Assembly (NCBI GenBank): GCA_003697105.1
Contig: RFFQ01000166.1
Location: 1-44,692, forward strand
Reading direction: 5' to 3'
DNA length: 44,692 nucleotides
DNA from: Gemmatimonadota bacterium
GTDB taxonomy: Bacteria > 4572-55 > J002
In this document: in pieces, positions 7,188-26,362 of the stretch
Position numbering within the stretch: the first letter of the stretch is position 1
Layout of the letters: each line of letters opens with the position of its first letter
Program-made: the position numbers and the translations under genes
The notes under the pieces: generated by a model
The model's input: the letters and a program-made list of their open reading frames with translations, nothing else
Databases searched by the model: none
Told to the model about the DNA's origin: nothing

Positions 7188-8615
7188 TTAGAGGTGTGGT
7201 GAAAACAACCGGAAGACCCCGTTCCGCAATTTAACCGGCAAAGGGTAGTTTTCAACCTCTCCAAAGGTCAGCGGCCGGGATTGTGATAATTTCTGCTGGA
7301 AGATTGCTATCGCCTCCCGCGCCACACCGGCATCATAACATTCTACGTTGAACTCAAAATTGAGGCGCAGACTCCGCGCATCCCAATTGGACGAACCGAT
7401 CAGTGTCCAATCCTCATCAACAATCATCAACTTGGAATGGTCAAAGGGGGGTGGCACAAGGTAAATCTGGCAACCGCGCTCCAATAACTGCCATAACTGC
7501 GCGGTGGATGCCCACTGCACCAGTTTAAGATTTCCTTTTTCAGGAATTAAAATCTGGACATTAATTCCAGAGAGTGTGGCGATATTCAGTGCCGAAATCA
7601 GCTTGCTATCGGGTATAAAGTAGGGGGTCTGGATTCGGATGGAACGCTGGGCATTGGCAATCGCCCCCAGCAACATCCAATGGATTTTCTCAAAGTCTTC
7701 ATCGGGTCCATCTGGGATGCCGCGAGCCACCACATCCCCAACGGCGCCTAACTCTGGGAACCAAGCGGCACCGGTCAATTGTTCGCGGGTGCAAAAATAC
7801 CAATCTTCCACAAAAACGCGTTGTAAACGATTCACAATGGGACCCTCCAGCCGGAAATGAAGATCATTTACCGCGAGCTTGGCATAATCGCGGATGTTCA
7901 TCCCCCCGGTAAAGCCAATTTGCCCATCGATCACCAAAATTTTACGATGATTACGCAAATTAGCATACGATAAGCGCCAGGGCCACAGGGAGGGTAAGAA
8001 AAAAGCATGGGGAATTCCCAACTTTTTGAGCCGCCACGATACAGAAGGAAAACTGTAATGCAAACCAACACCGTCAATCAGCAGGCGTACCGCCACCCCC
8101 CGTTTGGTGGCACGTTGTAAGGCTTCTAAAAAAGCATCCCCTTGGGCATCATTGCCAAAAATGTAGGTTTCCAAACTGATGGACGTTCGGGCTTGTTCGA
8201 TGGCATCCAGCATAGCGGGGTATGCCTGATCACCGTTGACCAGCATCTGCACCGTATTTCCGGTGGTGATCGGCTCTTTTAAAACAGAATCTCCATATTT
8301 AATCAATTTTAAACGTTGAGGAGCGATATGGAAGCGGTGTAAATCAGGGGCCTCTTGCAAAGTTGGGCGCGGTACCGTTGGGAGGTCTTTAAGCGCCGCC
8401 GCCCGCCGCCGGATACGATTGATCCCGAAAATATAGTACAGGAACGCCCCAACCCCCGGCGAGAAGAGAATTAAGCCGACCCAGATCACTGCCGCCCGCG
8501 AATCCCGTTTGTAAAGCAAGGCATGACATGCCGCCCAGAGGGTCAGGATGAAGAAGGTCAGGGTAAATATGTTGGAAAGTAAATTCTGCCAGAAGGCAAT
8601 CACGTTACCGGACAT
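7188..8615 (-). CDS. cls: Cardiolipin synthase (PLD family, N-terminal PLDc_N helices)
   Basis: Two HKD motifs (NHRKILVIDG, DHSKLMIVD), GSSNWDARSLRLNFE, and N-terminal TM helices. Confidence 0.92.
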   Translation of the reverse strand: MSGNVIAFWQNLLSNIFTLTFFILTLWAACHALLYKRDSRAAVIWVGLILFSPGVGAFLYYIFGINRIRRRAAALKDLPTVPRPTLQEAPDLHRFHIAPQRLKLIKYGDSVLKEPITTGNTVQMLVNGDQAYPAMLDAIEQARTSISLETYIFGNDAQGDAFLEALQRATKRGVAVRLLIDGVGLHYSFPSVSWRLKKLGIPHAFFLPSLWPWRLSYANLRNHRKILVIDGQIGFTGGMNIRDYAKLAVNDLHFRLEGPIVNRLQRVFVEDWYFCTREQLTGAAWFPELGAVGDVVARGIPDGPDEDFEKIHWMLLGAIANAQRSIRIQTPYFIPDSKLISALNIATLSGINVQILIPEKGNLKLVQWASTAQLWQLLERGCQIYLVPPPFDHSKLMIVDEDWTLIGSSNWDARSLRLNFEFNVECYDAGVAREAIAIFQQKLSQSRPLTFGEVENYPLPVKLRNGVFRLFSPHL

Positions 8616-8619
8616 CAGA

Positions 8620-9360
8620 CTACAGCCTAATCCGGGACGAGAGCGCGGCGTGATCAGACCACCGGTCCTGGCGATGCACCATCAATTCCGTAGCAATTAA
8701 CCCTTTGAGATAAATACGATCCAATTGGAGCGCCGGATAAAATGATGGAAAGGTGCGCGCATGGCGCCCGTGCAAGTCCTTAGAGACTTCCACCAGGTTT
8801 AAGGGTTGGGCGAGGTGATGATCTGCCTCACAATTCCAGTCGTTAAAATCACCAGCGACGATAACCGGCGCTTCCGGTGGTAGATGGGTGCTAATGTAGT
8901 GGCGAATCCATAAATACTGCTTGCGGCGAAAGGGCTTGAGCAGACCCAAATGGACACAAAAGGCATGCACCGGCTGGTCTATGCCGGGTACGGCAATTTC
9001 ACTGTGTAACATTCCTCGTTTTTCGCTGGGATGGGCTGAAATATCGATATTTTCCCACCGCAAGATTGGAAAGCGGGAAAGAATTGCATTGCCATAGTGT
9101 CCGTACCGGTGTACCGCATTTTTGCCGTAAACGGCTTCAACGTCGAGCGCGTCTGCTAAAAAGAGATGTTGCGGTTCTTGCCAATCCGCATGTTGGCTGG
9201 ATTTACGCCGGTTTGAGCCGGTCACTTCTTGCAAAAAGATGATGTCTGCTTGGGTGGTATGCAAGGCGTCGCGTAGGTCACGCAGGACGAAGCGACGATT
9301 AAATGAAGAAAACCCTTTGTGGATATTCAGGGTCAATACGTGGAGCGTTGGTAATGTCAT
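8620..9360 (-). CDS. YbhP-like endonuclease/exonuclease/phosphatase
   Basis: LTLNIHKG, LQEV, GNAILSRFP, AGDFNDW, LDRIY, SDHAAL; known type of linkage with cls. Confidence 0.88.
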   Translation of the reverse strand: MTLPTLHVLTLNIHKGFSSFNRRFVLRDLRDALHTTQADIIFLQEVTGSNRRKSSQHADWQEPQHLFLADALDVEAVYGKNAVHRYGHYGNAILSRFPILRWENIDISAHPSEKRGMLHSEIAVPGIDQPVHAFCVHLGLLKPFRRKQYLWIRHYISTHLPPEAPVIVAGDFNDWNCEADHHLAQPLNLVEVSKDLHGRHARTFPSFYPALQLDRIYLKGLIATELMVHRQDRWSDHAALSSRIRL

Positions 9361-10264: not shown

Positions 10265-13200
10265 TTAGCGCCGGTAGTCCTGCCAATTAATGCCATATTT
10301 GCTCATCATGGCGTAAAATTGCGTGCGATTAATGCCTGCCGCCTTCGTTGCCTGCCGGATATTCCCGCCAAACTGGGTCAGCAAATACGTAATAAATTGC
10401 TTTTCCAGAGCCGCAATTCGATCCGCTTTTGCCTGTTTCAGTTGATCCAGCGTCTGGGGGATGACCTCCGCCGCGGGTAGTTGAGCCGTTGGAGCAAGCA
10501 AATCTGCCGGCAGATCGGCTTCGGAAAGGACCGAATCTGACGCAAAAATCATCATGCGCTCAATGATATTTTCCAACTGCCGGATGTTCCCCCGCCAGTC
10601 CTGTTGCATCAAGCGGGTTAGTGCGGTATCCGTAATTTTGGTGATGGTTTTACCCAATTTCGGGTTCAACTTCTGGATAAAATGGCGTACCAACAACGGA
10701 ATATCTTCCCGGCGTTCCCGTAGTGGTGGTAATTGAATGGGTACAACCGCAATCCGGTAGTATAAATCTTCTCGAAATTCATTTTTTTCAATCAAGTCGA
10801 TCAAATCCCGGTGAGTAGCGGCGATCAAGCGGATATCGACCGAGATGTCCCGGTTGCTGCCGATGCGTTGAAACGTACGATCTTGAATCACGCGCAAGAC
10901 CTTCGCCTGTGTGGAAAGTGGCATATCGCCAATTTCATCAAGGAAAAGAGTCCCACCATTCGCCACCTCAAACTTCCCCGGTTTTGACTGAATCGCACCC
11001 GTGAATGCCCCTTTTTCATGCCCAAACAGCTCACTTTCCAGCAAATTTTCCGGCAACGCGGCACAATTGATCGCCACAAATGGCGCTGCTTTGCGCGGGC
11101 TGTTGTAGTGAATTGCCCGCGCGACCAACTCTTTACCCGTGCCGGTCTCACCCGTGATAAGCACGGTCACATTTTGCTCACTGATGACCTCCAATTGGCG
11201 ATACAGTTGTTGCATCGGGCGGGATTTGCCGATAATCTGCCCAAATTGAAAGCGCTCTGAAAGCTGTTCACTCAGCAGGTCGATTTTAGAAACCAGTTTT
11301 TCGGTCAACCGCACATTTTCAATGGCAATCGCCGCTTGTTGGGCAAGTGCGGTGAGGACTAGCAGTTGATCTTTGGAAAAGTGCGGATTTTCGACCGTAG
11401 CATCCACATATAACACCCCTAAAGGGGGATCGGTAGGGGTAACAGATGGGGGGCTGAACTTCAACAAGGGTAAACAGATGATCATTCGCAACTCTAAATC
11501 GACAATACTGCGCGTTACCGGCAGGGTCTGGGTGGAGGTGTCATCCACCACCACCGGTTGAGCCGTTTCGTATGCTTGCCGTACAATGGTGCGGCTAATG
11601 GCAAACTCATCTCCATCTAACGCCTCTCGATTTAAGCCGCGTGCGGTTTGGAAGCGGAGGGTACCCTGTTCATCCGCCAGCATAATAAAGCCGCGTTCCG
11701 CACCGGAGAGCGAGATGACGGCATCCACCGTCCGGTCAATCAAGGTGGGTAAATCTCTAGCTTGATTCAGCGCCGCAATCTGATCCAGTAAGCCAACCGG
11801 TACATCCGTAGGGCGGGTGCTGTTCAGGTAGTACCGGGTTTGATGTGCTTTTGTCCGGTTTTTTAAGTGGTCAAATTGCCGTATCGCCTTTGTTAAGTAA
11901 TGCTGCGCCTGTTCGTACTCTCCTTGTTGCCATGCCAGCAGTCCTGTCAACCGGTCAACTTCTGCCACCCAATACACGTGGGGAAAGTCCTGAAGATGTG
12001 CCTGAAGCCGCTCCAACACACCGGTGAGATGTTCCGCGGACCCTTGCACCAAATGGTACTGCATCACCCGCAAGCCACCCAAAATATGCAGTTCTGGATC
12101 GGGAATCGTGATCTCATCCAGGCGGGCAGCGGAAGGAGAAAGCCACAGCCGGATTAGCATTTCTTCCTTTGTTTGTTGGTGATCTGTCGCCAGTGCCAGT
12201 GCCTCCCGCAGGCAGGTGATAAACGGCTCAACGTCATGGCACTCAAAATGGACTAACCCCAACCAAAAGAAGGCATCGATCCGCGGAACCACGACTGCTT
12301 CAGTAGCGATAATAACCTGCTCAAAATAAGAACGGGCGACATCATATTGTCCCTGAAAATAGGCGATTTTACCTAAGCGCAAGATGCTATCAATCCAGTT
12401 TTTTATTTTTTTAGCGGTCTGAAATTGTTCCGCGGCATAAGCAATCACCTGCTGCGCTTCGGTCACCTCTCCCCGTGCCACCCCAACCCAACTGATATTA
12501 CTAGAAGCAAGTAAAATCCAAATATGTTGTTTTTTCTGCTCGGCAATATCGCGTGTAATGCGATATTGTGCCACCGCGGCGGCAAATTGCCCTTTGCTGT
12601 AATAGACCGACCCCAAATTCAGCGCATTAAGCGCAATCAAGCGCTCCTTACCACTTTGCCGGGCATAGACGAGAGCTTGCTCAAACGATTCAATCGCCGG
12701 GTCATACTGGTAGCTGTTAAAATAGGTTGCCCCGATGTTACCCAACGCCACCGCCATCCCCACCGGATTATCTGATTGTTGGTGGTAGGAAAGTGCCTCC
12801 TCAAAATAACGACGCGCCGTCTGCCAATCCCCTTGGTCGAGGTACACCGTGCCCATATCGGAGATCGAATCTGCCACCAGTTTAAGCTCATTCATCTGTT
12901 TTGCTTGCTCATGTACCTGCCGGTAAATATCAATAGCCTCATCAAACTTTGCCGCTAACCGGTAAAGCCGGGCGATTTCTAACTGCAAATAAAATGCGTC
13001 CTGTTGGCGGTCTTCAAGGTGCTGAACCAATGCCAAGCCTTTTTGATTGTATTGAATCGCAAGGCTGTATAACCCCTGCCGGGTCGCCTGTTTAGAGAGT
13101 TTGGTCACATATTCGTAAGCTTTTTCGTAGTGTTGGGCGGCTTCAAAATGGAAAGCCAAATCCTCCCACGAGTCCCCATTTAGCGCTTCCAAAACGGCAG

Positions 13201-14998
13201 CCAGCCGGGCATGCCACGTCGCCACATCTGCCAAGTGGTGATAAAGTGCTTGTTGATATTCTATCCGGGCTAATTGGTAACCAAATTCAGACTCGGTCAC
13301 CCAGTTATCCCGCAACAAATCGGTCAAAATGCCGTAAATTGCCGGTAAAGGACGCCCGGTAACATCCGCAATAACCTGCGCCGAAACCGGTTGGTGGGCT
13401 ACGGCGAGCCAGTTTAGCACCTGCCGGTCATCTGCCGGTCGTTGTTCCAAGCGGGTGATAAATAAGGCTTCGACATCCAAACTACCTTCAAATTGTGCCA
13501 GTTCCGCATGATGTACGTGCCACTGCCCCTGCCGGTAAACCAACAACCGCTGGTCGATCAAGGTGTGAATCCACTCTTCCGCTTGACCGGGGTTACCCTG
13601 ACTTTGCACCAGCACGGATTCCAGCAACCGGTTGGGGTCATCAATCCGTCCTAATACGAAATAGATTAAATCTTGTAAATCGGTACGGGCGAGCGGACGT
13701 AGTCGGATGTCCGCCGCCGTATGATTTTCTTCAGTATAAAAAATGGGGGTTTGGGTCTGTTCACACAGCTGGTCAAAAATCGCCATAGAGAGGGTATCCC
13801 AGCGATCCCGGTCATCTGCCAGCACGATCATTTGCAGTTCGCTAAGGGCATGTGCCAGATATGCCGCTACCTGATCGTAAAAAAGGTCCTCTGGAGTTTC
13901 CGCTGGGGCAATTCCGGCAAAATCCGGGTGGGTGGGCAGAATTTTGACCAATTGGGGGGCAACATCTTCCGCCGGATAGTGTTGCAGTACCGCCTGCACT
14001 AACGGTTGAAGCGTGATACCACCGGATTTGGGACTCACAACAAACACCGGAAATCCTTCCAATTGAAGCCTAAACTTGATCTCGCGCAGGAGACGGCTTT
14101 TACCAATCCCTTTTTTACCACCGATACTCAGCACGCCGGCGCGTTGGTCGCGGGCAAATTGAATCAGGCGGTCTTGTTCGGCACTCCGATTGACAAAATC
14201 ACCTGTCTTGCAAAAAACGGGTGCGGTCATACCGCTTTCCGTGTGGTAAAGCACCGCTCGCACATCTTCTGCGGTTTGGTAGCGTTCGGCTGGATTTTTT
14301 TGAAGAAGCCGTTCAATGATGCGCCACAGGTCGGGGAAGTCCGTCAAGGGTTGGGGCGATTGGTAGAGATGTCCCTGAATACAATCGGAAATCGTCGCTA
14401 TGGAAAATGGAAACTCCCCACTAATCAGTTGGTAGAGCATCACCCCGAGGGCGTACAAATCCGAGCGGGGGTCATTACGCACGCCGCGAATCCGCTCCGG
14501 GGACATATATGCCAAGGTGCCCGCCAATCCGCTTGTGCGCAGCACTTCAAAATCCGTAGATAAGCCAAAATCCATCAATTTAAAGATGCGCTCCCGGCTC
14601 ATCAGTATATTTTCAGGCTTAATATCGCCATGCACAATGCGCCGCAAGTGTACCACCGCCAAACCCTGACAAACCTGATCGCCAAGATTGCGGACAGACG
14701 CTTCCTGCCCCACAAATGCCGCTGGGGTTAATGCTCCTTCTGGCAGCAATTCCATCGTGAAATAAGCAATGCCCTCATCCGTCATACCAAAATCATGCAC
14801 CTTCAGGATGTTGGGATGATCAAGGCGGGTTAAAATGGAAAATTCACGGCGAAAACGTTCGGAAAACTGCCGTTGAGCCAATTGTTTTAATGCTACGTGT
14901 CGCTCGGCTTGAGTATCCCACGCGGCGAAAACAGTCCCGCTACTCCCTTCACCGAGGCGTTGGTCTAAGATATACCGGTGATCAAATAAGCGATCCAT
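10265..14998 (-). CDS. Multidomain sigma54 enhancer-binding protein: Ser/Thr kinase, P-loop ATPase, TPR, GAF, AAA+ and Fis HTH
   Basis: Kinase motifs [26 protein letters not shown]; second P-loop [13 protein letters not shown] repeats; GAF (GAERGFIML); [30 protein letters not shown]-terminal HTH. Confidence 0.92.
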
Positions 14999-15319: not shown

Positions 15320-17575
15320 ATGAACCGCATGATTTCTTTATCCCTTTTTGTGTTGATTTTCGTTATGGCAACGAGTACGTTTGCCAGTACCGTGACCGGC
15401 ATTGTCACAGATGCCGAATCCGGTGACGCCTTAGCAGGTGTTTTTATGGCACTCCATGCCCGCCATCACCATCCGATGAATACCGTCACCGATGAAAATG
15501 GAGTGTACACCTTTGAGAACGTCGAAGCCGATACCTACATCCTCACGGCAGGGCTGGCGAACTATGAGCGCTTTGAAACCGAAGTTGTCGTGGGTGACGG
15601 CGAAACCGTAGAAGTCAACATCGCACTCGTTCCGTTGGATATACCCGAGGGGGCGGTCATAGGAACGGTCGTAGATAGCGAAAGCGGCGAAGCTATCGCC
15701 GGCGCGATGGTCTCATTACGAGTACACCGCTACTATCATCATGTCCGCACGGATGAAACCGGAGCGTTTCAATTCAATCATGTCCCAGCCGGGGAAGCTG
15801 AATTAGAAGCATATGCCTTTGGATATGAGGAGTACGAAACGGAATTTGAAATAGGAGAAGATGAAACCATCGAAATGACCGTTGAAATGACCGCATTGAA
15901 TATCGAATCCGGTAACGTGATGGGCACGGTGCTGGATGCCGAATCCGGCGAACCAGTGGTGGATGCTCGGGTGGTGCTCCACGGCGAACGGGGACGTCAC
16001 CCGCATAGTTTTTTCGCCCTAACCGATGAAACCGGCGCGTTTGCCTTTGAAAATATTCCGGCGGGCTTGTATGAACTAAGTGTTCGTGTGTTTGGTTACG
16101 AACGATACGATCAAGAGTTGGAGGTTGTCGCTGACGAAACAGTGAATATCACTGTCGAACTCGTACCTTTCCAAGAACCGACCTTCGGGGCACTTACCGT
16201 AACGGTAGTGGACGCGGAAACCCAAGAACCCGTCTCCCGGGCACGGGTGTCGCTCATCCGCACAGAGCGTCCGGGCTTCCACAGCCACCGGTTCACCGAT
16301 GAGGCAGGTTTAGCCGAATTTAACCGCGTCCCAACGGGGGATTACTATCTGCGCGTCCATGCCCGCGGTTATGACACCGCAGAAGCCGAAGTGACCATCA
16401 TGGAAGCAGAAACCACAGAATTAACCCTTGAAATCACACCAACCGCCCCACCGGCATACGGTAGTGTCTCGGGATTCGTCACCGATGAAGAAAGTGGCGA
16501 AGCCATTGCTGGCGCCCGCGTGGTACTCCGCCGGGAAGGGTTCCCCGGACATCACGGGCGGCGAATGTATGTGACGCGCACTGCCGAAGATGGGAGCTTT
16601 ATGTTTGATGAGGTCTTAACCGGTAATTATCGCATCTGGGCTTCCATGTTTGGCTACGAACGGGTGGATTATGTGGAAATCGAAGTCCTTGAAGGTGAAA
16701 ATACCACGGTGGACTTCGCCCTCACCCCCCTTGCCCCACCCGCGTTTGGTACGGTCACCGGTACGGTCTTCGATGCGGAAACCGGTTTACCGCTAGCGGG
16801 TGCACATGTGCGTGCCGTTGCTGCCGGACATCATGGCCGCCCCATTTTCACCCTCACAGATTCACTGGGAATGTACACCTTAGATGTGCCGGTGGGCGTA
16901 CACGATTTCCGCGCCGGACGATTCGGTTATCTCCCCGAAGTTGTTGAAGATGTGGAAATCATGGAAAATGAAACCATTACCCTGGATTTCATCCTGACAC
17001 CGTCCGATTCTGTTGAAATTTTCGGCGGGTTCTCCGTTCATATTCCGGATCAATCGTCACTGGGCGTTCAATTTATCGATCAAACCGACGGGCTGGTGAC
17101 CGATTGGCTCTGGTCATTTGGTGATGGTACCACCAGTCACGAAGCCAACCCGGACCACATCTACACCGAGGAAGGCGTTTACACGGTAACGCTGGAAGTC
17201 TGGAGCAATGATAGCTGGGATTTGGTCATGGAAGAAGACATCGTGGTGGTTCAATTCTCGACCAGTGCCAAACCCGAACAGACGGGTATCGCCGTACCGC
17301 AAGCGACCCGCTTGACGAACTATCCGAATCCGTTCAACCCTAAGACAACAATTGCCTATGAACTCCCACAGACCAGCTCCGTGAATCTATCGATTTATGA
17401 TATTACCGGACGGTTAATTTGGCAAGCCTTAAACGAATCGCAAGAAGCGGGGTCTTATACCATCGAGTGGAACGGAGTCGATCAAAATGGGCATCCGGTA
17501 CAAAGTGGAGTGTATCTATACCGCTTGACAACAGATAGCGGAAGCCTGACGAATAGTATGGTCTTGCTCAAATAA
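15320..17575 (+). CDS. Secreted protein with six carboxypeptidase-regulatory/Cna-B-like repeats, PKD and a FlgD/T9SS-type C-terminal domain
   Basis: Signal peptide; six G.V.D.E[ST]GE....A.V repeats; WSFGDG PKD motif; NYPNPFNP...SGVYLYRL...MVLLK. Confidence 0.88.
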   Translation: MNRMISLSLFVLIFVMATSTFASTVTGIVTDAESGDALAGVFMALHARHHHPMNTVTDENGVYTFENVEADTYILTAGLANYERFETEVVVGDGETVEVNIALVPLDIPEGAVIGTVVDSESGEAIAGAMVSLRVHRYYHHVRTDETGAFQFNHVPAGEAELEAYAFGYEEYETEFEIGEDETIEMTVEMTALNIESGNVMGTVLDAESGEPVVDARVVLHGERGRHPHSFFALTDETGAFAFENIPAGLYELSVRVFGYERYDQELEVVADETVNITVELVPFQEPTFGALTVTVVDAETQEPVSRARVSLIRTERPGFHSHRFTDEAGLAEFNRVPTGDYYLRVHARGYDTAEAEVTIMEAETTELTLEITPTAPPAYGSVSGFVTDEESGEAIAGARVVLRREGFPGHHGRRMYVTRTAEDGSFMFDEVLTGNYRIWASMFGYERVDYVEIEVLEGENTTVDFALTPLAPPAFGTVTGTVFDAETGLPLAGAHVRAVAAGHHGRPIFTLTDSLGMYTLDVPVGVHDFRAGRFGYLPEVVEDVEIMENETITLDFILTPSDSVEIFGGFSVHIPDQSSLGVQFIDQTDGLVTDWLWSFGDGTTSHEANPDHIYTEEGVYTVTLEVWSNDSWDLVMEEDIVVVQFSTSAKPEQTGIAVPQATRLTNYPNPFNPKTTIAYELPQTSSVNLSIYDITGRLIWQALNESQEAGSYTIEWNGVDQNGHPVQSGVYLYRLTTDSGSLTNSMVLLK

Positions 17576-17604
17576 GGACAAATCGACCCCCCCTCCCTAA
17601 AACA

Positions 17605-17647
17605 GACGACCGGCATTACGTTAGCGTAGTGCCGGGCGTCCTGTTTC
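17605..17647 (+). terminator. Stem-loop between the two secreted-protein genes
   Basis: GACGACCGGCATTACG-TTAG-CGTAGTGCCGGGCGTC, with a weak T tail. Confidence 0.6.
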
Positions 17648-17668
17648 ATTGAAATGAGGTGAGTTGGC

Positions 17669-19336
17669 ATGAAGTGGAATCACATATTGTTGGTTATGAT
17701 GAGCTTTCTGTTGGGTTTGGGGCTAATAAACTCTAGCCGCGCTCAAATGGGGAGTGTTTCCGGGCACGTTATAGATGAAAATAGCGGAGAGCCTATCTCC
17801 CGAGCCCGGGTGTATGTGATTGTGGACCGGCATTTCCGCTGGGCATACACCAATCCGGATGGGTTCTATCAAGTTTACGGACTACCGCCCACCGCCGGTG
17901 CCAAAGCGTATGTCAGTATGGAGGCACGCCACGGATTTGAAATTGTCGAATGGTACGACAATAAACCCTCCTTTGAAACAGCGGATTTCATCACCATTCA
18001 GCCGGGACAGACCACAGAAAATATCGATTTTGAAATTGCGTTGCCCCAATTTGGCGCAATTCGCGGGCGGGTCTTTGATGCGGAAACAGAGGATCCTCTC
18101 CGCGCGGAAATCATTATTTTTCAAGCGGAACACCCGGATCGCCCATTATTCCACATCATGCCAGACCCCCATACCGGCACATACGCGACCTATCTTCCGC
18201 CCGGTAGTTATATCCTATTTGCTCGCAGCCACCACCGGGAGAACCCCTATTTTCCCGAATATTATCAAGATAAACCGACGTTTTTACTGGCGGATGTACT
18301 CGAAGTAACCGCAAATGACACCTTATTTGATATTGATTTTGCGCTCGACCCCGTAACACCCCCCTTGCACACCATCAGCGGGCAGGTGCTAAATGACGAA
18401 GATTCACCGTTCAACCAAGCAATGGTCACAGCGGTTTCAATGGAAGCGATCTCGTCATCCGAAGAATGGGACCGCGTGGTATTACCCGGTAAAAGGGATA
18501 CCCCCGAAATCCATCACTTCCCCCGGGAAGGCTGGAGCACCACCCTCACCGACGAAAATGGAAATTACACCCTCGATATTTATACAGAAGATGAATATTT
18601 CATCATGGCACTTCCCCCAGAAGCGCCGGTACTTCTTGCCGGAAATACCCCCAACTGGCTCCTCTCCGATCCGCTCTATGTCAATCAGGATTTAGAGAAT
18701 ATCGATTTTTCAATTGCGATTTTGGATACGGCTCAGGAAACCACCGGGATTCAAGGACGCGTGGTGCGAAATGACGGCGAACCCCTCCGCGGCGTGCGGG
18801 TGTATGCCCTGAATCCAGAAAACGAGGAAATTGTGACCTTTACCCTAACAAACCCCCTCGGCTATTATCGTTTGCGTGGTTTAGAGCCGGATACAAATTA
18901 CCAAATCATTGCCAACCGCCTCGGTTATGATCATGCCGAGTACCCGGAAATTGTTACGACCGGTGCCGTCTATGAAATGATCACCAACATCGACTTTGAA
19001 CTCACGCGGATCACGGCATCTTCAACACCACCGCCGCGGATCACCCTTAGCATTCCTCAAAATGTCGCGCTGTACCCCAACTACCCGAACCCGTTTAATC
19101 CAGCCACCACCATACCGTATCAAATCCAGACCCCACAAGATGTGACCGTTTCCATCTATGATAGCGCCGGCAGATTGATCCGGTACTGGGAGTATCCCCA
19201 GCATCCAGCCGGATCATTCCACATTGAATGGGATGGAACCAACCAGCAACAGGTGCCGCAAAGCAGTGGAATTTACATCTACCGCTTGACGGCCAACCAG
19301 AAGATTCACGAGCGAACAATGGTCTTACTCAAGTAG
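17669..19336 (+). CDS. Secreted carboxypeptidase-regulatory-like repeat protein with a FlgD/T9SS-type C-terminal domain
   Basis: Signal peptide; four repeats with E[WY]Y.NKP...AD motifs and NIDF ends; NYPNPFNP C-terminal domain. Confidence 0.86.
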   Translation: MKWNHILLVMMSFLLGLGLINSSRAQMGSVSGHVIDENSGEPISRARVYVIVDRHFRWAYTNPDGFYQVYGLPPTAGAKAYVSMEARHGFEIVEWYDNKPSFETADFITIQPGQTTENIDFEIALPQFGAIRGRVFDAETEDPLRAEIIIFQAEHPDRPLFHIMPDPHTGTYATYLPPGSYILFARSHHRENPYFPEYYQDKPTFLLADVLEVTANDTLFDIDFALDPVTPPLHTISGQVLNDEDSPFNQAMVTAVSMEAISSSEEWDRVVLPGKRDTPEIHHFPREGWSTTLTDENGNYTLDIYTEDEYFIMALPPEAPVLLAGNTPNWLLSDPLYVNQDLENIDFSIAILDTAQETTGIQGRVVRNDGEPLRGVRVYALNPENEEIVTFTLTNPLGYYRLRGLEPDTNYQIIANRLGYDHAEYPEIVTTGAVYEMITNIDFELTRITASSTPPPRITLSIPQNVALYPNYPNPFNPATTIPYQIQTPQDVTVSIYDSAGRLIRYWEYPQHPAGSFHIEWDGTNQQQVPQSSGIYIYRLTANQKIHERTMVLLK

Positions 19337-19523: not shown

Positions 19524-20081
19524 TTAAAGCGACTTCCACCACGCACTGGGGGGCGTTTCCAAACACGCTTGCGCAACTTCCTTAGAAATCGGGTGCTTCA
19601 GTTTTGCCAGACTACTGTTGATAAAATCATCGGTATCGGCATAGCCCACTGCCCGGTATTCAATCGCCTGAATCAAACATTCTAGTACATCGGCATCGGT
19701 CGCCAACTCATGCTCAGGGGAGGTGTCTGCCTCATCAATCCGGTATTCCAACGCCTGCAATTGACCCGCGATAACGGGAGGCAATAACCGCAGTTGATCC
19801 CGGTAGGCATCTTTTTCGGCGGCTTTTTGGTCAACGTAGCGTTTGGTTACGGCATGAGCATCGTTGATTCGTGCCTCGGAGACATCATGAAAGAGACAGA
19901 TAGTCATCGTTTTGTACGGGTCCGCACCGGCAAGTTGCGCCAAAAGATAGCCCAACACTGCCGTCCGATGAGAATGCTCGCTAACACTCTCCGGGTCTTT
20001 GACGCCCACGCACCACCAACCCGACCGTTTGACACGTTTCAATTGACCCACTTCATACAAAAATTTAGCAATATCGTGCAT
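19524..20081 (-). CDS. HD-domain phosphohydrolase (YfbR/HDDC2-like 5'-deoxynucleotidase family)
   Basis: LKRVKRSGW, ESVSEHSHR, LFHDVSEAR, DADVLE; start reassigned to MHDIAK. Confidence 0.85.
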   Translation of the reverse strand: MHDIAKFLYEVGQLKRVKRSGWWCVGVKDPESVSEHSHRTAVLGYLLAQLAGADPYKTMTICLFHDVSEARINDAHAVTKRYVDQKAAEKDAYRDQLRLLPPVIAGQLQALEYRIDEADTSPEHELATDADVLECLIQAIEYRAVGYADTDDFINSSLAKLKHPISKEVAQACLETPPSAWWKSL

Positions 20082-20094
20082 CTCACCCTTTCCA

Positions 20095-21354
20095 TCAAAA
20101 TGTTGAGCCAAAGCCGATGGATTTTTCACTGACATCCTGAAATGCCGGCGCTTTTTCACCTTCCGCGTAGCGGAAAAAGATAAAATTCTTGCCCGCTTCC
20201 ATCTGTTTTTCCAAGTCAACAAAGGGGATCATCGCGCCAAACACCTCTGTGAAAAAGGTCAAATCCTGCGCTACGGAAATCGCATAATACTGCCCATCGG
20301 CAACCCCATCCGGCGCATCCTGAAACATCGTTTGCTGATATTCCCCTTGTAGAATCAGATACGGACCAAATGCCAATTCATACCGCGCACCGAAATCAAA
20401 ACGGGCAAAGGTCGAATTACCTTCTGAATCTTCACCTTCGGGTTGGTAGCCCACATGAACCGTCAGCGGCATCGCTAACCGGGCATACCCCTTTTTTTGG
20501 TGCCATTTGAACATGGGATAATTGGTGAAAGGAATCTCAAATACACCTTGAAACCGAAAACTCTGGTTGACCCCATAGAGCAGATTATCCTCCATCGGAT
20601 TATACCGCGTTTCAAATTGGTAACCCACCGCAACTTCACTGCGATAAATCAACCCTCCCACAAAATAATACGGATGCACCACCAGATTGATGGCGGTTTG
20701 CGAGCCATTCCGCATGGAATCCCGGCTGGCAATTGTCCCTATGGAGTTTCCATCTAGGGAAATGGCATGAAGCCAAAGACCGTTGCGCGGGGTCATCCAG
20801 TTGCGCCGGAGCAGATGGAACCGAATATCATGATCAAAGGCATACTTGACATCATCCTCTACAATGCGGTGTACATTAAAATCAAACGTTTTGTCCTCAC
20901 CCACATTCCACCGGTTTGATGGAGGCGGCGTAACGACCACCGCACCCCGGTGCAAAAAATCAAGTGTTAAATTCTCCGGATCGTCTTGCCAATCCACTTC
21001 CAACTTCACCTGATCCGCATTGCCCGGCACCCAATGGATAGTCAAGATTTCGACCGGTTTACCATCCGCAAGTAACTGCCAATTTTCCCGCCTCCGGATC
21101 GAGTCCGTCACCGCTTTAATTAGCGTTTCATTACCGCTATCTTCCAGATCATATAAAAATTCGTCCCGGTCATAGAGCGTTGCGGTGAGGCTATGCCGTT
21201 TTATGGTTTTGATTTTATGTCCCTGTTCATCAAAAACGGGCGTTACCGTTTCCGCCCATTCCGCGGCTTGCAACCGGAGGAGTTCAGCGTAGCCGGTATT
21301 GACGCATCCCCAGCACAACACCCCGATTAAACTGAAAACCAACATCTTGTACAT
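20095..21354 (-). CDS. Hypothetical exported or outer-membrane protein
   Basis: Signal peptide or possible lipobox; beta-strand-rich C-terminal half; terminal Phe. Confidence 0.7.
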   Translation of the reverse strand: MYKMLVFSLIGVLCWGCVNTGYAELLRLQAAEWAETVTPVFDEQGHKIKTIKRHSLTATLYDRDEFLYDLEDSGNETLIKAVTDSIRRRENWQLLADGKPVEILTIHWVPGNADQVKLEVDWQDDPENLTLDFLHRGAVVVTPPPSNRWNVGEDKTFDFNVHRIVEDDVKYAFDHDIRFHLLRRNWMTPRNGLWLHAISLDGNSIGTIASRDSMRNGSQTAINLVVHPYYFVGGLIYRSEVAVGYQFETRYNPMEDNLLYGVNQSFRFQGVFEIPFTNYPMFKWHQKKGYARLAMPLTVHVGYQPEGEDSEGNSTFARFDFGARYELAFGPYLILQGEYQQTMFQDAPDGVADGQYYAISVAQDLTFFTEVFGAMIPFVDLEKQMEAGKNFIFFRYAEGEKAPAFQDVSEKSIGFGSTF

Positions 21355-22135: not shown

Positions 22136-22171
22136 AAAAAACCCGTCAGACTGGGAAACGTCTGACGGGTT
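22136..22171 (-). terminator. Intrinsic terminator of the nuclease gene, between convergent genes
   Basis: AACCCGTCAGAC/GTCTGACGGGTT stem with a T tract on the minus strand. Confidence 0.8.
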
Positions 22172-22200: not shown

Positions 22201-25200
22201 TTATTTCACCAGCGTCATCATTCGGGTTTGCGTCTCTTTTTGGGAAGTCATCACATACAGGTAAACACCGCTATTCACGGCTTGACCCCGTGCATCCGTA
22301 CCGTTCCACCGGATGGTATAAGCACCCGCCGGACGGAATTCATCCACCAAGGTGGTGACGAGCCGCCCCTGTAGATCATATATCTGCAAAGAAACATGAC
22401 CCGCCGTAGCCAGATCAAAATCAATCGCGGTGGCGGGGTTGAACGGGTTGGGGTAATTCTGGGAAAGTACCACTGAGCCCGGTACTGCCGGTTCATTGGT
22501 CGGAACTAATTCCGGGTTGGTCATGATTTCCGCGTGGGAACTTCGACCCGCCATTGAAGCCGCTCCGGCAACTGTTGAGGCAATAATGCGCACCTCATCA
22601 ATGTAAATATGATCCGCATTTCCACTGGCATCGCATTGAAACCGGAACTGGGCATTTGACGGAAAGACATAACTCCCCGCATCGATTGTTACGGTAGCCG
22701 TATAGAAGGTATTGTTATTAAAATCCGTGCCTCGGGCATAGCTGGCAACCGTTTGCCAAGCGGAGCCGTCGTAGTAGCGCACCCAAAAATCCTCGTTATT
22801 TTCCATGCTGTAGGCATAAAACGCAAATTCAATATCCAGTTGATCGTAAGCCGAGACATCAACGTAGCCCGAGGTCATTGCGGATGCCGTACCCGAGTTA
22901 TCCCGAAGCCGGATAGAATAGCTACCCCCATAGGAGCGTGAACCCGAATAACGGGCACAATCGCCACCCCCATCACTCCAGCCATCCCAGCCACTTTCAA
23001 AATCGGCATAGAGCAGTTCCACGGATGCCGGCGCCAGCGTATGCGGGTCACCGTTGCCACTCAAAACCGACCAATCGATGTAGGTGTCCGTATCCGTGTT
23101 CGGGTCGGTGCGGACAATCGACGAGCCTTGCGGTGCATTCGGCAGGCTGGTACTGCCCCACCCGGACGGCAGACCTGCCCCAGCACCACCTTCCCAAGCA
23201 ACGGCATCAACCATCGCAGACCCGTTCTGTAAGATTAGAGCTTCGCCGCTATTATTGAGTGCGGGAATCGATCCATATAGATCGGCATCCGCACCGTAAA
23301 GGGCGGTAAATCCTGCGGGATCGGCGGCAATTGTCAAAAAGGATGCGCTGTCAAGATGTGTTCCGGGCGGGATCGTGTACGTTGAACCGGCACCGTTGTT
23401 ATCGGTGATCGTCCAGCCACTCAGATCGACCGTCGATCCGGTGGGATTGTACAACTCGATCCACTCTTCAATTGATTCTGTACCCGGCGTATCGTAAAAA
23501 ATTTCGCTGAAAACCACGCTAGCCACCACGGGGTCACTGATCGTTGCGGTGGTTTGGTCCATGCCGGTAGCGCCGTCATCATCCGTCACGGTCAAGTGGA
23601 TCGCATACGTTCCGGCAGTTTGGTAGGTATGCGAGGGATTCGCCACGGTGCTGGTCGTACCATCGCCAAAATCCCACAAATAGCTGACAATCGAGCCGTC
23701 CGAATCGCTTGAGCCAGCACTGCTGAAGGAGATCGCCTGTCCGGTCAAACCGGAGTAGGTTCCGTTGGCATTAGCAGTGGGAGCGGCATTCGGATTTTCA
23801 ATAGTTGCCGTGGTTTGATCCATGCCGGTAGCGCTGTCATCATCCGTCACGGTCAAGTGGATCGCATACGTTCCGGCAGTTTGGTAGGTATGTGAGGGAT
23901 TCGCCGCAGAGCTGGTCGTACCATCGCCAAAATCCCACAAATAGCTGACAATCGAGCCATCCGAATCGCTTGAGCCGGCACTACTGAAGGAGATCGCCTG
24001 TCCGGTCAAACCGGAATATGTGCCGTTGGCATGGGCGATTGGGGCAACATTGCCCGGTGTGGTGGCTTGGGTTTGCGGATTCCCGTTTCCGGTCGCAACC
24101 GACCAATCCGCGTACGTATCGGTATCGGCATTCACATCCATGCGGAAAATCGTTTCGCCCGTGGCGCAGACCGGTTGGGTGGTACTACCCCAGCCGCTGG
24201 GGACGCCGGCACTGGCACCACCTTCCCACGCCACGGCATCCACAGGTTGTGCCGCTTCATTTTGCAGAATCAGCGCATCACCACCATTATTCAGTGCCGG
24301 AATCGACCCGTACACATCGGCATCGTACCCGTACATCGCGAAAAACCCCGTTTGTACCGCCGCCACCGTTAAATAGCTATTGGGGGCAATCGTCGTTCCG
24401 GCAGAGAAGGTATAGCTCGTTCCTGTACCGTTGTTGTCAATGATCGTCCAGCCCCCCAAATCGATGGTACTGGAGCCGCCGTTGTATAGCTCGATCCACT
24501 CCTCGTCGCTGTCCGTACCCGGTGTATCATACAGAATTTCGCTAAAAATGACGCCGGTGGAACCGCTTCCGCCGCTGGTGATGGTCGCCGTCGTTTGATC
24601 CGTGCCGGTCGCACCCAAATTATCTGTGACCGTCAGGGTGACGGTGTACGTCCCTGTTGAGCTGTAACTATACACTGGATTCATGGTGGTACTGGTCGCA
24701 CCATCACCAAAATCCCAGAGATAACTAACAATCGAGCCATCAGCATCACTGGAGCCGGCACTGCTAAAGCTGATAGTTTGGCTAATTGTTCCGGTATAGG
24801 CGCCGTTGGCATTTGCCACCGGAGGTGTATTGCTGGCGCCGCCGATACTGACAAAATCGGCATAAACCGGCAGGTGATCGGAGGCATAATGTAACGCATC
24901 CGCCACATTTGCCGGTACAGACGAATTATTCCCATCATTCACGGCAAGATTAAAATGATTGCCATCATTACCCACAACCGTATAGGAACCGCTGATGTAA
25001 TCAATCCCCGCACCATCATTTACGCCATAATTGGCAAAGATCATATCAAACCGGTCATCAATACCCCCCGTAGCGCCGCCGCCGAACTGGGTTGTGCGTG
25101 GGCTTTGGGTATGGATGCTGGCAAAAGCGGCATTATCGTGCCAGTTTCCGACCATATTTGCGGGGATCAAGTCTTCGGAACGCCCGTTACCGGTGGCGAT

Positions 25201-25767
25201 AAACCGCTGGTATGCCGGTTCACCGGCATCATAAATGTTCATGTCTCCAACGATAACCCACTCCGTACCAGCCGGCAAACTTGCCAGATGATTCCGCAGT
25301 TCTGTCACTTCCCGGTCTCGTTGGGCTTCATTGGCACTGCCGGTACTGGCTTTGAGATGGCAACTATAAAATCGAACCTCGTTCCCGTTGATGGTGGCGA
25401 CATATTCGGAAATATTACGGAGTTCTGTCGGTATTTGTGCTTGAGAGACAAAGGAAACCGTAGAAGTGCGATAAAAAAACATGTGGTCTGTATCCGGACC
25501 ATCATTGAAGGTCGCCCGGGCATACCCGGGACCTAGGGCATTCAAAATCAGGTCTGCACCGCCAGCATCCACCATTTCCTGCATCAATAAGACATCCGGG
25601 TTGACATGGTTCAACACCGTCTGGAAATAGGTTTGGCGGTCACTATCCGCCGTATCCAGTTTTAGCCCATTGTAGGTCATTACCCGGAACGTGACATCCG
25701 CCAGAACGGCGGAAGAACAGACAAAAAACACCAACACCAACAGCATGACTACACGTGAGAAACGCAT
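22201..25767 (-). CDS. Secreted EEP-family (DNase I-like) nuclease with 3 PKD, 2 lamin-tail domains, a beta-sandwich domain and a FlgD/T9SS-type C-terminal domain
   Basis: Signal peptide; MTYN, QE, HLKA, GDMN, DRFD, SDHLPV; WDFGDG three times; FSEI.YD.PG...EEWIELYN twice; NYPNPFNP. Confidence 0.9.
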   Translation of the reverse strand: MRFSRVVMLLVLVFFVCSSAVLADVTFRVMTYNGLKLDTADSDRQTYFQTVLNHVNPDVLLMQEMVDAGGADLILNALGPGYARATFNDGPDTDHMFFYRTSTVSFVSQAQIPTELRNISEYVATINGNEVRFYSCHLKASTGSANEAQRDREVTELRNHLASLPAGTEWVIVGDMNIYDAGEPAYQRFIATGNGRSEDLIPANMVGNWHDNAAFASIHTQSPRTTQFGGGATGGIDDRFDMIFANYGVNDGAGIDYISGSYTVVGNDGNHFNLAVNDGNNSSVPANVADALHYASDHLPVYADFVSIGGASNTPPVANANGAYTGTISQTISFSSAGSSDADGSIVSYLWDFGDGATSTTMNPVYSYSSTGTYTVTLTVTDNLGATGTDQTTATITSGGSGSTGVIFSEILYDTPGTDSDEEWIELYNGGSSTIDLGGWTIIDNNGTGTSYTFSAGTTIAPNSYLTVAAVQTGFFAMYGYDADVYGSIPALNNGGDALILQNEAAQPVDAVAWEGGASAGVPSGWGSTTQPVCATGETIFRMDVNADTDTYADWSVATGNGNPQTQATTPGNVAPIAHANGTYSGLTGQAISFSSAGSSDSDGSIVSYLWDFGDGTTSSAANPSHTYQTAGTYAIHLTVTDDDSATGMDQTTATIENPNAAPTANANGTYSGLTGQAISFSSAGSSDSDGSIVSYLWDFGDGTTSTVANPSHTYQTAGTYAIHLTVTDDDGATGMDQTTATISDPVVASVVFSEIFYDTPGTESIEEWIELYNPTGSTVDLSGWTITDNNGAGSTYTIPPGTHLDSASFLTIAADPAGFTALYGADADLYGSIPALNNSGEALILQNGSAMVDAVAWEGGAGAGLPSGWGSTSLPNAPQGSSIVRTDPNTDTDTYIDWSVLSGNGDPHTLAPASVELLYADFESGWDGWSDGGGDCARYSGSRSYGGSYSIRLRDNSGTASAMTSGYVDVSAYDQLDIEFAFYAYSMENNEDFWVRYYDGSAWQTVASYARGTDFNNNTFYTATVTIDAGSYVFPSNAQFRFQCDASGNADHIYIDEVRIIASTVAGAASMAGRSSHAEIMTNPELVPTNEPAVPGSVVLSQNYPNPFNPATAIDFDLATAGHVSLQIYDLQGRLVTTLVDEFRPAGAYTIRWNGTDARGQAVNSGVYLYVMTSQKETQTRMMTLVK
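23545..24030 (-). repeat. Recent 261-bp tandem duplication of a PKD domain
   Basis: CATGCCGGTAGCG...GTCAAGTGGATCGCATACGTTCCGGCAGTTTGGTAGGTATG is nearly identical at 23560 and 23821. Confidence 0.9.
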
Positions 25768-25882
25768 AACAAACTCCTATGAGTTGAGTATGAGAAGAAA
25801 TGGTATTTTGTGTTTGATGATAAATGGCACAAAGCGGGCTGTCCCCGGAAAGTATGCCCCGCAAACGTTATAAACGCTGACT

Positions 25883-25955
25883 CTCCGTGGTGACAGCAAA
25901 TTTACGGTTTGCCGGTGGAGGCTCCCCCGACCCTATTACGGGGGATTACACAGAG
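25883..25955 (-). ncRNA. 2'-deoxyguanosine-II riboswitch aptamer (purine riboswitch variant)
   Basis: RNA CUCUGUG-UAAU-CCCCCG-UAAUAGGGU-CGGGGG-AGCCUCCAC-CGGCAAA-CCGUAAA-UUUGCUG-UCAC-CACGGAG folds as the P1/P2/P3 purine three-way junction with a CCGUAAA loop and 2'-dG-II-type junctions. It lies in the 5' UTR of a nuclease/LTD gene. Confidence 0.88.
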
Positions 25956-26113
25956 GAAAGAGATAACCCAGAGGGTTAAAAGATCAACTTACGCCGGTAT
26001 TAATACCCGTGAATGTTAGGATTGAATTAAGAAAACCGGCAAAAACAAAAACATAGCGGCTTGATTCTATCCGGGCAATATGCAAAGTTCATGTCAGGGG
26101 TACGATATAAACA

Positions 26114-26294: not shown

Positions 26295-26331
26295 AAAAAA
26301 ACAGCGGCGAGCCTTTGAAAGACTCGCCGCC
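26295..26331 (-). terminator. Terminator at the end of the PHA-associated operon
   Basis: GCGGCGAG/CTCGCCGC stem with T7 on the minus strand. Confidence 0.8.
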
Positions 26332-26362
26332 AGACACGTTCCCTAACAATTCAACCTGACCC

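Follow-up and report, generated by a model that had tools for sequence, protein, structure and literature searches.

A predicted 2'-dG-II riboswitch and its unusual expression platform ahead of a gene for a secreted DNase-like protein in a Gemmatimonadota bacterium

Introduction

In which direction might a riboswitch for 2'-deoxyguanosine (2'-dG) control the gene for a secreted DNase-like enzyme, and how would its leader convert ligand binding into gene expression? The question is raised by contig RFFQ01000166.1 of a Gemmatimonadota bacterium (GTDB lineage Bacteria; 4572-55; J002; assembly GCA_003697105.1), of which we analysed a stretch of 44,692 nucleotides (nt), referred to here as the window. 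The minus strand of the window carries an apparent 2'-dG-II aptamer upstream of an open reading frame (ORF) for a 1188-amino-acid (aa) protein with EEP, PKD and LTD (lamin tail domain) modules. An earlier, sequence-only reading of the same DNA had proposed this pairing of switch and gene and had suggested that both the lineage and the gene context might be new. We establish below the class membership of the aptamer by sequence and structure, the existence of two competing helices in its leader, the architecture of the gene and the conservation of aptamer and gene as a cassette; the direction of control and the way in which a hairpin would stop expression we infer. What the locus adds is host range, cassette spread and an unusual expression platform, the class, a rare one, and its gene context being already known.

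The aptamer and its class

A scan of the whole 44.7-kb window, on both strands and against 4227 Rfam families (cmscan), returned a single match above its gathering score, that of the 2dG-II model RF03165 at 25956..25882 of the minus strand (65.2 bits, gathering score 60, E-value 1.6e-14). The match is full length, running through model positions 1-71 of 71 without truncation. The Purine model (RF00167) also passes its gathering score at the same place, with 44.5 bits against 37, and lies ~20 bits below 2dG-II. The complete purine-type three-way junction that the sequence-only reading had placed at 25883-25955 of the minus strand is thereby borne out, as is its assignment to the 2'-dG-II class, which both the covariance-model scores and all of the class-defining sequence features support. 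Judged on these grounds the RNA at 25956..25882 is a genuine and complete member of the class. With RF03165 or RF00167 no further purine-clan RNA was found in the 4.18-Mb host genome, and a permissive scan (E up to 10) listed no match to the MFR model of the 2'-dG-I class (RF01510, the Mesoplasma florum type); one lower-scoring clan member was suppressed at the aptamer in that scan and is taken to be the Purine model.

According to the paper on the env1 structure (Matyjasik and Batey 2019, PMC6847200), 2'-dG-II aptamers are defined by the pocket residues U22, C51 and C74 ("UCC"), by a two-nt insertion in J3/1 whose first letter is an invariant U, by an A after the insertion that takes part in a base triple, and by a P1 helix closed with G-C and not A-U. 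All four features are present in the window aptamer. The UCC pocket is found when J1/2 (UAA), J2/3 (...UCCAC...) and J3/1 (...AC) are aligned to the conserved letters of the consensus, and the insertion is seen in the G-U-C-A-C of J3/1, so that the variant junctions noticed earlier (J2/3 GCCUCCACC, J3/1 UCAC) stand as described, with J3/1 reading GUCAC in full. Residues U75-C76-A77-C78 of env1 are the same four letters as the U-C-A-C of this J3/1. The junction-proximal pair of P1 is G25949-C25889; such a closing G-C occurs in 32 of 32 aligned aptamers, in 31 of which both letters were fixed by the search pattern. Across these 32 distinct aptamers, which were chosen on pairing and fixed junction letters, compensatory changes are seen at 15 of the 18 consensus pairs.

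The ligand is inferred to be 2'-dG from membership in the class. A guanine- or guanosine-sensing purine variant would be the alternative, and we regard it as highly improbable, even though the Purine model passes its own gathering score and even though, as PMC6847200 states, some 2'-dG-II members discriminate poorly and bind guanosine nearly as well, which weighs against a strict 2'-dG sensor. The hallmarks of the guanine/adenine family RF00167 (U51, no J3/1 insertion, an A-U pair closing P1) are replaced in the window by C51, the two-nt insertion and G-C, changes that shift the preference from nucleobase to nucleoside (PMC6847200), and the 2dG-II model scores 20 bits better.

The downstream gene and its product

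The ATG of the 1188-aa ORF at 25767 lies 114 nt past the aptamer; the sequence-only reading had counted 115 nt. Pfam bears out the EEP-PKD-LTD-PKD-PKD-LTD order of domains claimed for the product (Exo_endo_phos, three PKD and two LTD), and the complete order is a signal peptide, EEP, PKD, LTD, PKD, PKD, LTD and a type IX sorting domain, the last being an addition to the earlier domain list. The signal peptide is Sec-like and N-terminal (by eye). The EEP domain (Exo_endo_phos, PF03372) occupies residues 31-250 with 34.7 bits against a cut-off of 24.5; one LTD lies at 403-515 and two of the PKD domains at 588-647 and 660-740 (Pfam), and residues ~910-1100 have no domain assigned. At 1105-1181 the Por_Secre_tail model PF18962 scores 27.7 against a cut-off of 27 and TIGR04183 scores 33.3 against 23, by which the protein is a predicted type IX secretion cargo with a type A sorting domain.

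Alignment with a Balneola protein places N33, E64, D175/N177 and D297-H298 (by eye), which we take to be the EEP catalytic motifs. The closest solved structure by sequence is TDP2 (E 0.0025). There are 483 homologues at E<=0.001, of which the closest are of Balneolaceae type, with 61-65% identity and lengths of 770 to ~1400 aa, most of them ~1200-1310 aa long with the EEP-PKD-LTD-type IX architecture. The protein would probably act as a DNase, because the combination of EEP and LTD is shared with ExeM (PMC6085458), because secretion signals are present, and because Endonuclease I genes stand under the same switch elsewhere.

Relatives, gene contexts and hosts

Relatives of the aptamer were sought with a degenerate pattern for the junction core on genome_contigs, which returned at least 120 loci, and with a second pattern on metagenome_contigs, which returned 15, all of them Balneolaceae-like. 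Aptamer-like loci were told apart by counting base pairs in P1, P2 and P3, the criterion being seven of seven P2 pairs and at least four of six P3 pairs. This pairing is found in 25 of the genome loci, as well as in the window copy and in L003, a locus of genome G052, and in none of the remaining listed loci. By their record titles the aptamer-like matches listed belong to Elusimicrobia (16), Balneolaceae (7), KSB1 (1) and a "bacterium" (1); among these matches the class is frequent in Elusimicrobia genomes.

The genes behind these aptamers differ between groups. Those of the Balneolaceae encode EEP-PKD-LTD, Endonuclease_1-fn3-LTD and Endonuclease_1-Calx-beta proteins. In the Elusimicrobia we find metallo-beta-lactamase-fold proteins, dual-specificity phosphatases, GTP cyclohydrolase II, a response regulator, a radical SAM protein and unknowns. 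G052 and a second KSB1 copy have genes for TonB-dependent receptors downstream, and the first KSB1 copy a protein without a Pfam match. Over 649 aa the window protein has 62% identity to the riboswitch-linked Balneola protein, and its domains follow the same order; the window also shares both its aptamer sub-type and the orthologous gene with the Balneolaceae cassettes L016, L061, L129, L137, L143 and L145, whose full-length homologues also end in a type IX tail. The suggestion of a new gene context is therefore not sustained, since aptamer and orthologous EEP-PKD-LTD gene occur together in Balneolaceae genomes and in marine metagenome contigs. In the literature we found no paper on the 2'-dG-II plus EEP-PKD-LTD context, nor one joining the lamin tail domain to a riboswitch, the original class paper lying outside this coverage.

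The leaders of the Balneolaceae cassettes differ from that of the window. Their start codons come 39-45 nt past the aptamer, whereas the window has a 114-nt leader with an alternative hairpin of 16 base pairs (bp), and the 3' flank of their P1 is complementary to the ribosome-binding site (by eye); control is therefore probably translational there. In eight Balneolaceae leaders the computed changes in ribosome-binding-site accessibility amount to 0.02-0.23, in mixed directions. In the Balneolaceae Endonuclease I leaders L128, L131 and L138, a run of 8-9 nt, 13-20 nt past the aptamer, exactly complements the 5' strand of P1 and the first base of J1/2; pairing of the two encloses the entire aptamer in an alternative closing helix, and L148 has no such run. 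The aptamers L003 (G052) and L133 (second KSB1 copy) lie 430-600 nt upstream of their TonB-dependent receptors (CarboxypepD_reg, Plug, barrel), and L133 has a hybrid pocket that combines a guanine-like J2/3 (GUUUCUACC) with the J3/1 insertion and the closing G-C pair.

As for the host, three genomes of its phylum are in the collection, and both the riboswitch and an EEP homologue (query residues 1-320) are found in one of the three; the two genomes without switch and gene are 93% and 99% complete. Their lack of the cassette and the 62% identity that links the product to Balneolaceae proteins suggest, taken together, that the host acquired the cassette. The base composition of the gene (GC content 0.50-0.57, flanks 0.46-0.50) was considered as proof of horizontal transfer and set aside, the difference being too small and confounded by Gly/Ala/Thr-rich repeats. 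In a sample of 60 other genomes, G052 alone has a true 2dG-II aptamer, with the junctions that define the class; a match in G044 scores above the cut-off as well, yet it shows a guanine-type J2/3 and no J3/1 insertion. The lineage is thus new only in a narrow sense, as one of three genomes of the host phylum, the class occurring also in Elusimicrobia, Balneolaceae and KSB1-labelled genomes. The window is best represented in hot-spring metagenomes. Run X1, part of these hot-spring data, also contains a lower-depth 177-nt contig with a related aptamer (6 differences in 70 nt over 25882-25951, a G052-type J2/3 and P3), the sequence upstream of which is different; it seems that a second organism with a 2'-dG-II aptamer lives in the same habitat.

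Competing folds in the leader and the direction of control

When left unconstrained, the leader folds not into the aptamer but into a 16-bp hairpin with two single-A bulges, whose 5' strand takes up the 3' part of the aptamer (Table 1). The hairpin has a local z-score of -2.35, with 3 of 200 shuffles folding equally well, and a predicted energy of -26.6 kcal/mol at 37 C and -10.6 at 70 C. For transcripts of 120-130 nt this fold is predicted to be 3-7 kcal/mol more favourable than that of the aptamer, an energy difference for which a bound ligand could plausibly make up. The leader may thus alternate between two exclusive folds, the P1-closed aptamer and the 16-bp hairpin, and so place under 2'-dG-II control a unit of one gene, whose predicted product is a DNase-like EEP-PKD-LTD enzyme exported by type IX secretion. 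Without ligand the 16-bp hairpin would be the OFF state, an attenuator whose U-tract is poor; once bound, 2'-dG would lock P1, block the hairpin and let the gene be expressed. Deoxyguanosine set free as DNA is degraded would, in such an ON switch, report that substrate is present and raise nuclease production. We lean, modestly, towards this ON reading with the 16-bp hairpin as its OFF-state attenuator.

An expression-platform hairpin had been proposed earlier at about 25829-25862 (GCGGGGC...GCCCGC-UUUGU). It is present, with six pairs, one bulge and a 16-nt loop, but it is weak (about -9.8 kcal/mol at 37 C, -3.0 at 70 C), and it is excluded by the 16-bp helix because some nucleotides belong to both and the loop that would connect them is not long enough. 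This small hairpin and a variant fold in the same region (Table 1) form only while the aptamer keeps its 3' strand. The layout of aptamer, switching sequence and GC-rich hairpin with UUUGU is that of an xpt-type OFF switch, in which the 16-bp helix would be an antiterminator and 2'-dG would let either GCGGGGC/GCCCGC with UUUGU or GGCAUA/UGUGCC with AUUUAU terminate, abundant deoxyguanosine shutting off the nuclease by negative feedback. The three-element layout, the folding of the downstream segment into the small hairpin when the aptamer is enforced, the mutual exclusion just described and the U-rich tail directly 3' of the small hairpin all speak for an OFF switch of this kind. We nevertheless find it doubtful, given the weakness and long loop of the small hairpin and a tail in which just 4 of 8 letters are U. 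At 25861 a natural variant (run X4, one contig, depth 11) breaks one of the six pairs without compensation, and by our own estimate a six-nucleotide complementarity inside 30 nt is not rare by chance.

The ON reading draws further on the relatives. Of 11 Elusimicrobia leaders that were folded, 9 use the 3' strand of P1 as the 5' arm of a canonical terminator (U5-U8), and a tenth, L042, pairs its aptamer core with the ribosome-binding site (the eleventh is unclear); since the aptamer competes with a terminator or a ribosome-binding site in 10 of the 11, these members are ON by architecture, which argues for ON and against OFF in the window. In predicted stability the 16-bp hairpin greatly exceeds the small one, most of all at high temperature, and it is in hot-spring metagenomes that the DNA is best represented. 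The uncompensated variant at 25861, a single contig, points the same way. Scavenging genes are usually induced by their substrate, which likewise favours an ON switch, and the relatives of the switch precede genes with scavenging functions (Endonuclease I-LTD, the orthologous EEP-PKD-LTD and TonB-dependent receptors). Gene-end hairpins with long stems and weak U-tracts occur elsewhere in the region (22171-22140 and 19465-19433), and we count them for the ON reading.

Several observations weigh against the ON reading, besides the xpt-type layout. No canonical U-tract follows the 16-bp hairpin, whose tail is CCGCUUUGUG; the host's thiamine pyrophosphate (TPP) and cobalamin riboswitches, by comparison, carry textbook U7 terminators. 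The computed accessibility of the ribosome-binding site hardly changes between the aptamer and the alternative fold and gives no sign of translational control: its mean unpaired probability at 37 C is 0.25 and 0.25 with the transcript 5' end at 25990, and 0.38 and 0.19 with the 5' end at 25962. Neither the at least 120 genome loci nor the 15 metagenome loci include a close relative of this leader, so that covariation lends the platform no support. No RNA dataset is listed with the stretch, and the matching contigs are of DNA type only. The freed 5' strand of P1 was also considered as an anti-Shine-Dalgarno sequence and rejected (-7.4 kcal/mol, 191 of 1000 shuffles being as good).

The same lack of a canonical terminator, in which the leader differs from the genome's other riboswitches, would fit a real aptamer with neither hairpin acting as a terminator. 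Control might then pass through translation of a leader ORF or through Rho, or the platform might have decayed after transfer and left the gene constitutive; we consider this unlikely. The leader ORF, speculatively, would run from a GUG at 25830 to a UAG at 25779-25777 (17 codons) and would either be coupled to the main gene or shield the C-rich, G-poor leader from Rho. Its candidate ribosome-binding site, GGGGA, lies inside the switching sequence, its stop overlaps the AGGAG of the nuclease gene, the segment 25829-25782 is nearly G-free, and the nearest aptamer relative, L003, has a Shine-Dalgarno-like GGAG in its switching sequence 7 nt before an AUG (by eye). Against it count the shortness of the frame and its location in sequence prone to open frames, the 11 nt between GGGGA and GUG, and the absence of any relation (by eye) between the peptides predicted for L003 and L130. 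Quite improbable, in our view, is the wider idea of a sub-type (window copy and its nearest relatives, G052 and KSB1) that relies neither on a terminator nor on directly masking the ribosome-binding site, gates leader-ORF translation or Rho access in a long leader, and travels across phyla as a cassette with DNA-scavenging genes, namely nucleases in the window and the Balneolaceae and TonB-dependent receptors in KSB1 and G052. The earlier proposal that deoxyguanosine released from extracellular DNA feeds back on a DNA-scavenging enzyme would, under the ON reading that we prefer, take the form of induction of the nuclease-like gene.

Table 1. Positions of the aptamer, leader and gene features in the window (position 1 is its first nucleotide)
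Feature	Position	Strand	Sequence or description	Basis
2'-dG-II aptamer	25882..25956	-		RF03165 match and covariation
P1	25956-25949/25889-25882	-	CCUCUGUG / CACGGAGA	
J1/2	25948-25946	-	UAA	
P2	25945-25939/25929-25923	-	UCCCCCG / CGGGGGA	
J2/3	25922-25914	-	GCCUCCACC	
P3	25913-25908/25900-25895	-	GGCAAA / UUUGCU	
J3/1	25894-25890	-	GUCAC	
Alternative hairpin, 5' strand	25880..25897	-	P3 3' strand, J3/1, P1 3' strand and 2 nt more	minimum-free-energy fold
Alternative hairpin, 3' strand	25838..25853	-	switching sequence, then CCGCUUUGUG	minimum-free-energy fold
Small hairpin and tail	25862-25856/25839-25834, tail 25833-25829	-	GCGGGGC/GCCCGC, tail UUUGU	read in sequence
Variant fold	25858-25853/25831-25826	-	GGCAUA/UGUGCC, inner CGGG/CCCG	
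Shine-Dalgarno-like site	25774..25778	-	AGGAG, 6 nt 5' of ATG	read from sequence
ORF of predicted secreted protein	22201..25767	-	1188 aa	Pfam and NCBIfam
Terminator of upstream alpha/beta-hydrolase gene	26302..26332	-	canonical, 14 pairs, U7	
Terminator-like hairpin past the nuclease-like gene	22140..22171	-	12 pairs, then UUUUACGUGU, 30 nt past the stop	

Transcription unit and neighbouring genes

The U7 terminator of the upstream alpha/beta-hydrolase gene and the 12-bp hairpin behind the nuclease-like gene together imply that the riboswitch heads a single-gene unit. No sigma-70-type promoter was found 5' of the aptamer at the threshold of the tool used. A hairpin UAACCC-UCU-GGGUUA, followed by UCUCUUUCCU, at 25964-25978 of the minus strand abuts the 5' side of P1 and was flagged as terminator-like.

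Two kb downstream of the nuclease-like gene, on the same strand and behind a terminator and a promoter-like site, an HD-domain protein is encoded at 19524-20222 (minus strand), which matches HD_3 and YfbR-like 5'-deoxynucleotidase in Pfam (the NCBIfam 5'-deoxynucleotidase model gives just 28 bits, cut-off 122); an enzyme of this YfbR-like type would convert deoxyguanosine monophosphate (dGMP) to the presumed ligand of the riboswitch. Two more type IX cargo proteins with CarboxypepD_reg repeats (751 and 555 aa, both with Por_Secre_tail) are encoded at 15320-19336 on the plus strand, and a 1577-aa fusion of Ser/Thr kinase, AAA_16/TPR (STAND-like), GAF and sigma-54 activator domains at 10265-14998 on the minus strand. 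A small second EEP protein (246 aa) lies beside a PLD-type (cardiolipin-synthase-like) gene at 7188-9360 (minus strand), in a context unrelated to the riboswitch unit.

Comparison with known systems

The 2'-dG-II class, described as the "UCC variant group" by Weinberg et al. 2017, is reportedly associated with Endonuclease I and LTD genes. The window copy and its relatives place the class in whole genomes with full gene context. Its hosts now include Elusimicrobia, Balneolaceae, KSB1-labelled bacteria and a candidate phylum of three genomes, and the genes under the switch include secreted nucleases, Endonuclease I, phosphatases and TonB-dependent receptors, a range that supports the view that the switch reports the breakdown of DNA and drives DNA scavenging. 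The 2017 account of the class drew on 12 metagenomic reads, none of which had an assigned host (PMC5473149). The window copy is set apart from the class as described by its host, which belongs to a phylum with three genomes in the collection. The definition of the class is unchanged by the window copy, which offers a full-length natural construct of aptamer, platform and gene for distinguishing ON from OFF control.

Among switches of the ON type, the pbuE (ydhL) adenine riboswitch shares the 3' half of its aptamer with a downstream hairpin that is followed by a proper U-tract. The window leader resembles it in that the 3' half of the aptamer is likewise common to a downstream hairpin, so that ligand would prevent the hairpin; it differs in having no such U-tract and in its ligand and pocket. 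The protein invites comparison with two extracellular nucleases, Shewanella oneidensis ExeM and Vibrio cholerae Xds, which are likewise secreted and join an EEP nuclease domain of the metal-dependent kind to LTD (PMC6085458, PMC6746945). ExeM has the order LTD, OB-fold region, EEP and GlyGly-CTERM anchor (PMC6085458); compared by architecture, the window protein has EEP, PKD/LTD repeats and a type IX sorting domain, and no OB-fold region.

Finally, the platform of the window copy, without a canonical terminator, stands apart from the 9 of 11 Elusimicrobia copies that have one, and both its L2 and its L3 exceed the Rfam consensus in length, which marks a sub-type that it has in common with the KSB1, G052 and Balneolaceae copies. 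With the known 2'-dG-II class (RF03165; env1 structure, PMC6847200) it shares the fold, the pocket residues, the J3/1 insertion and the G-C pair of P1.

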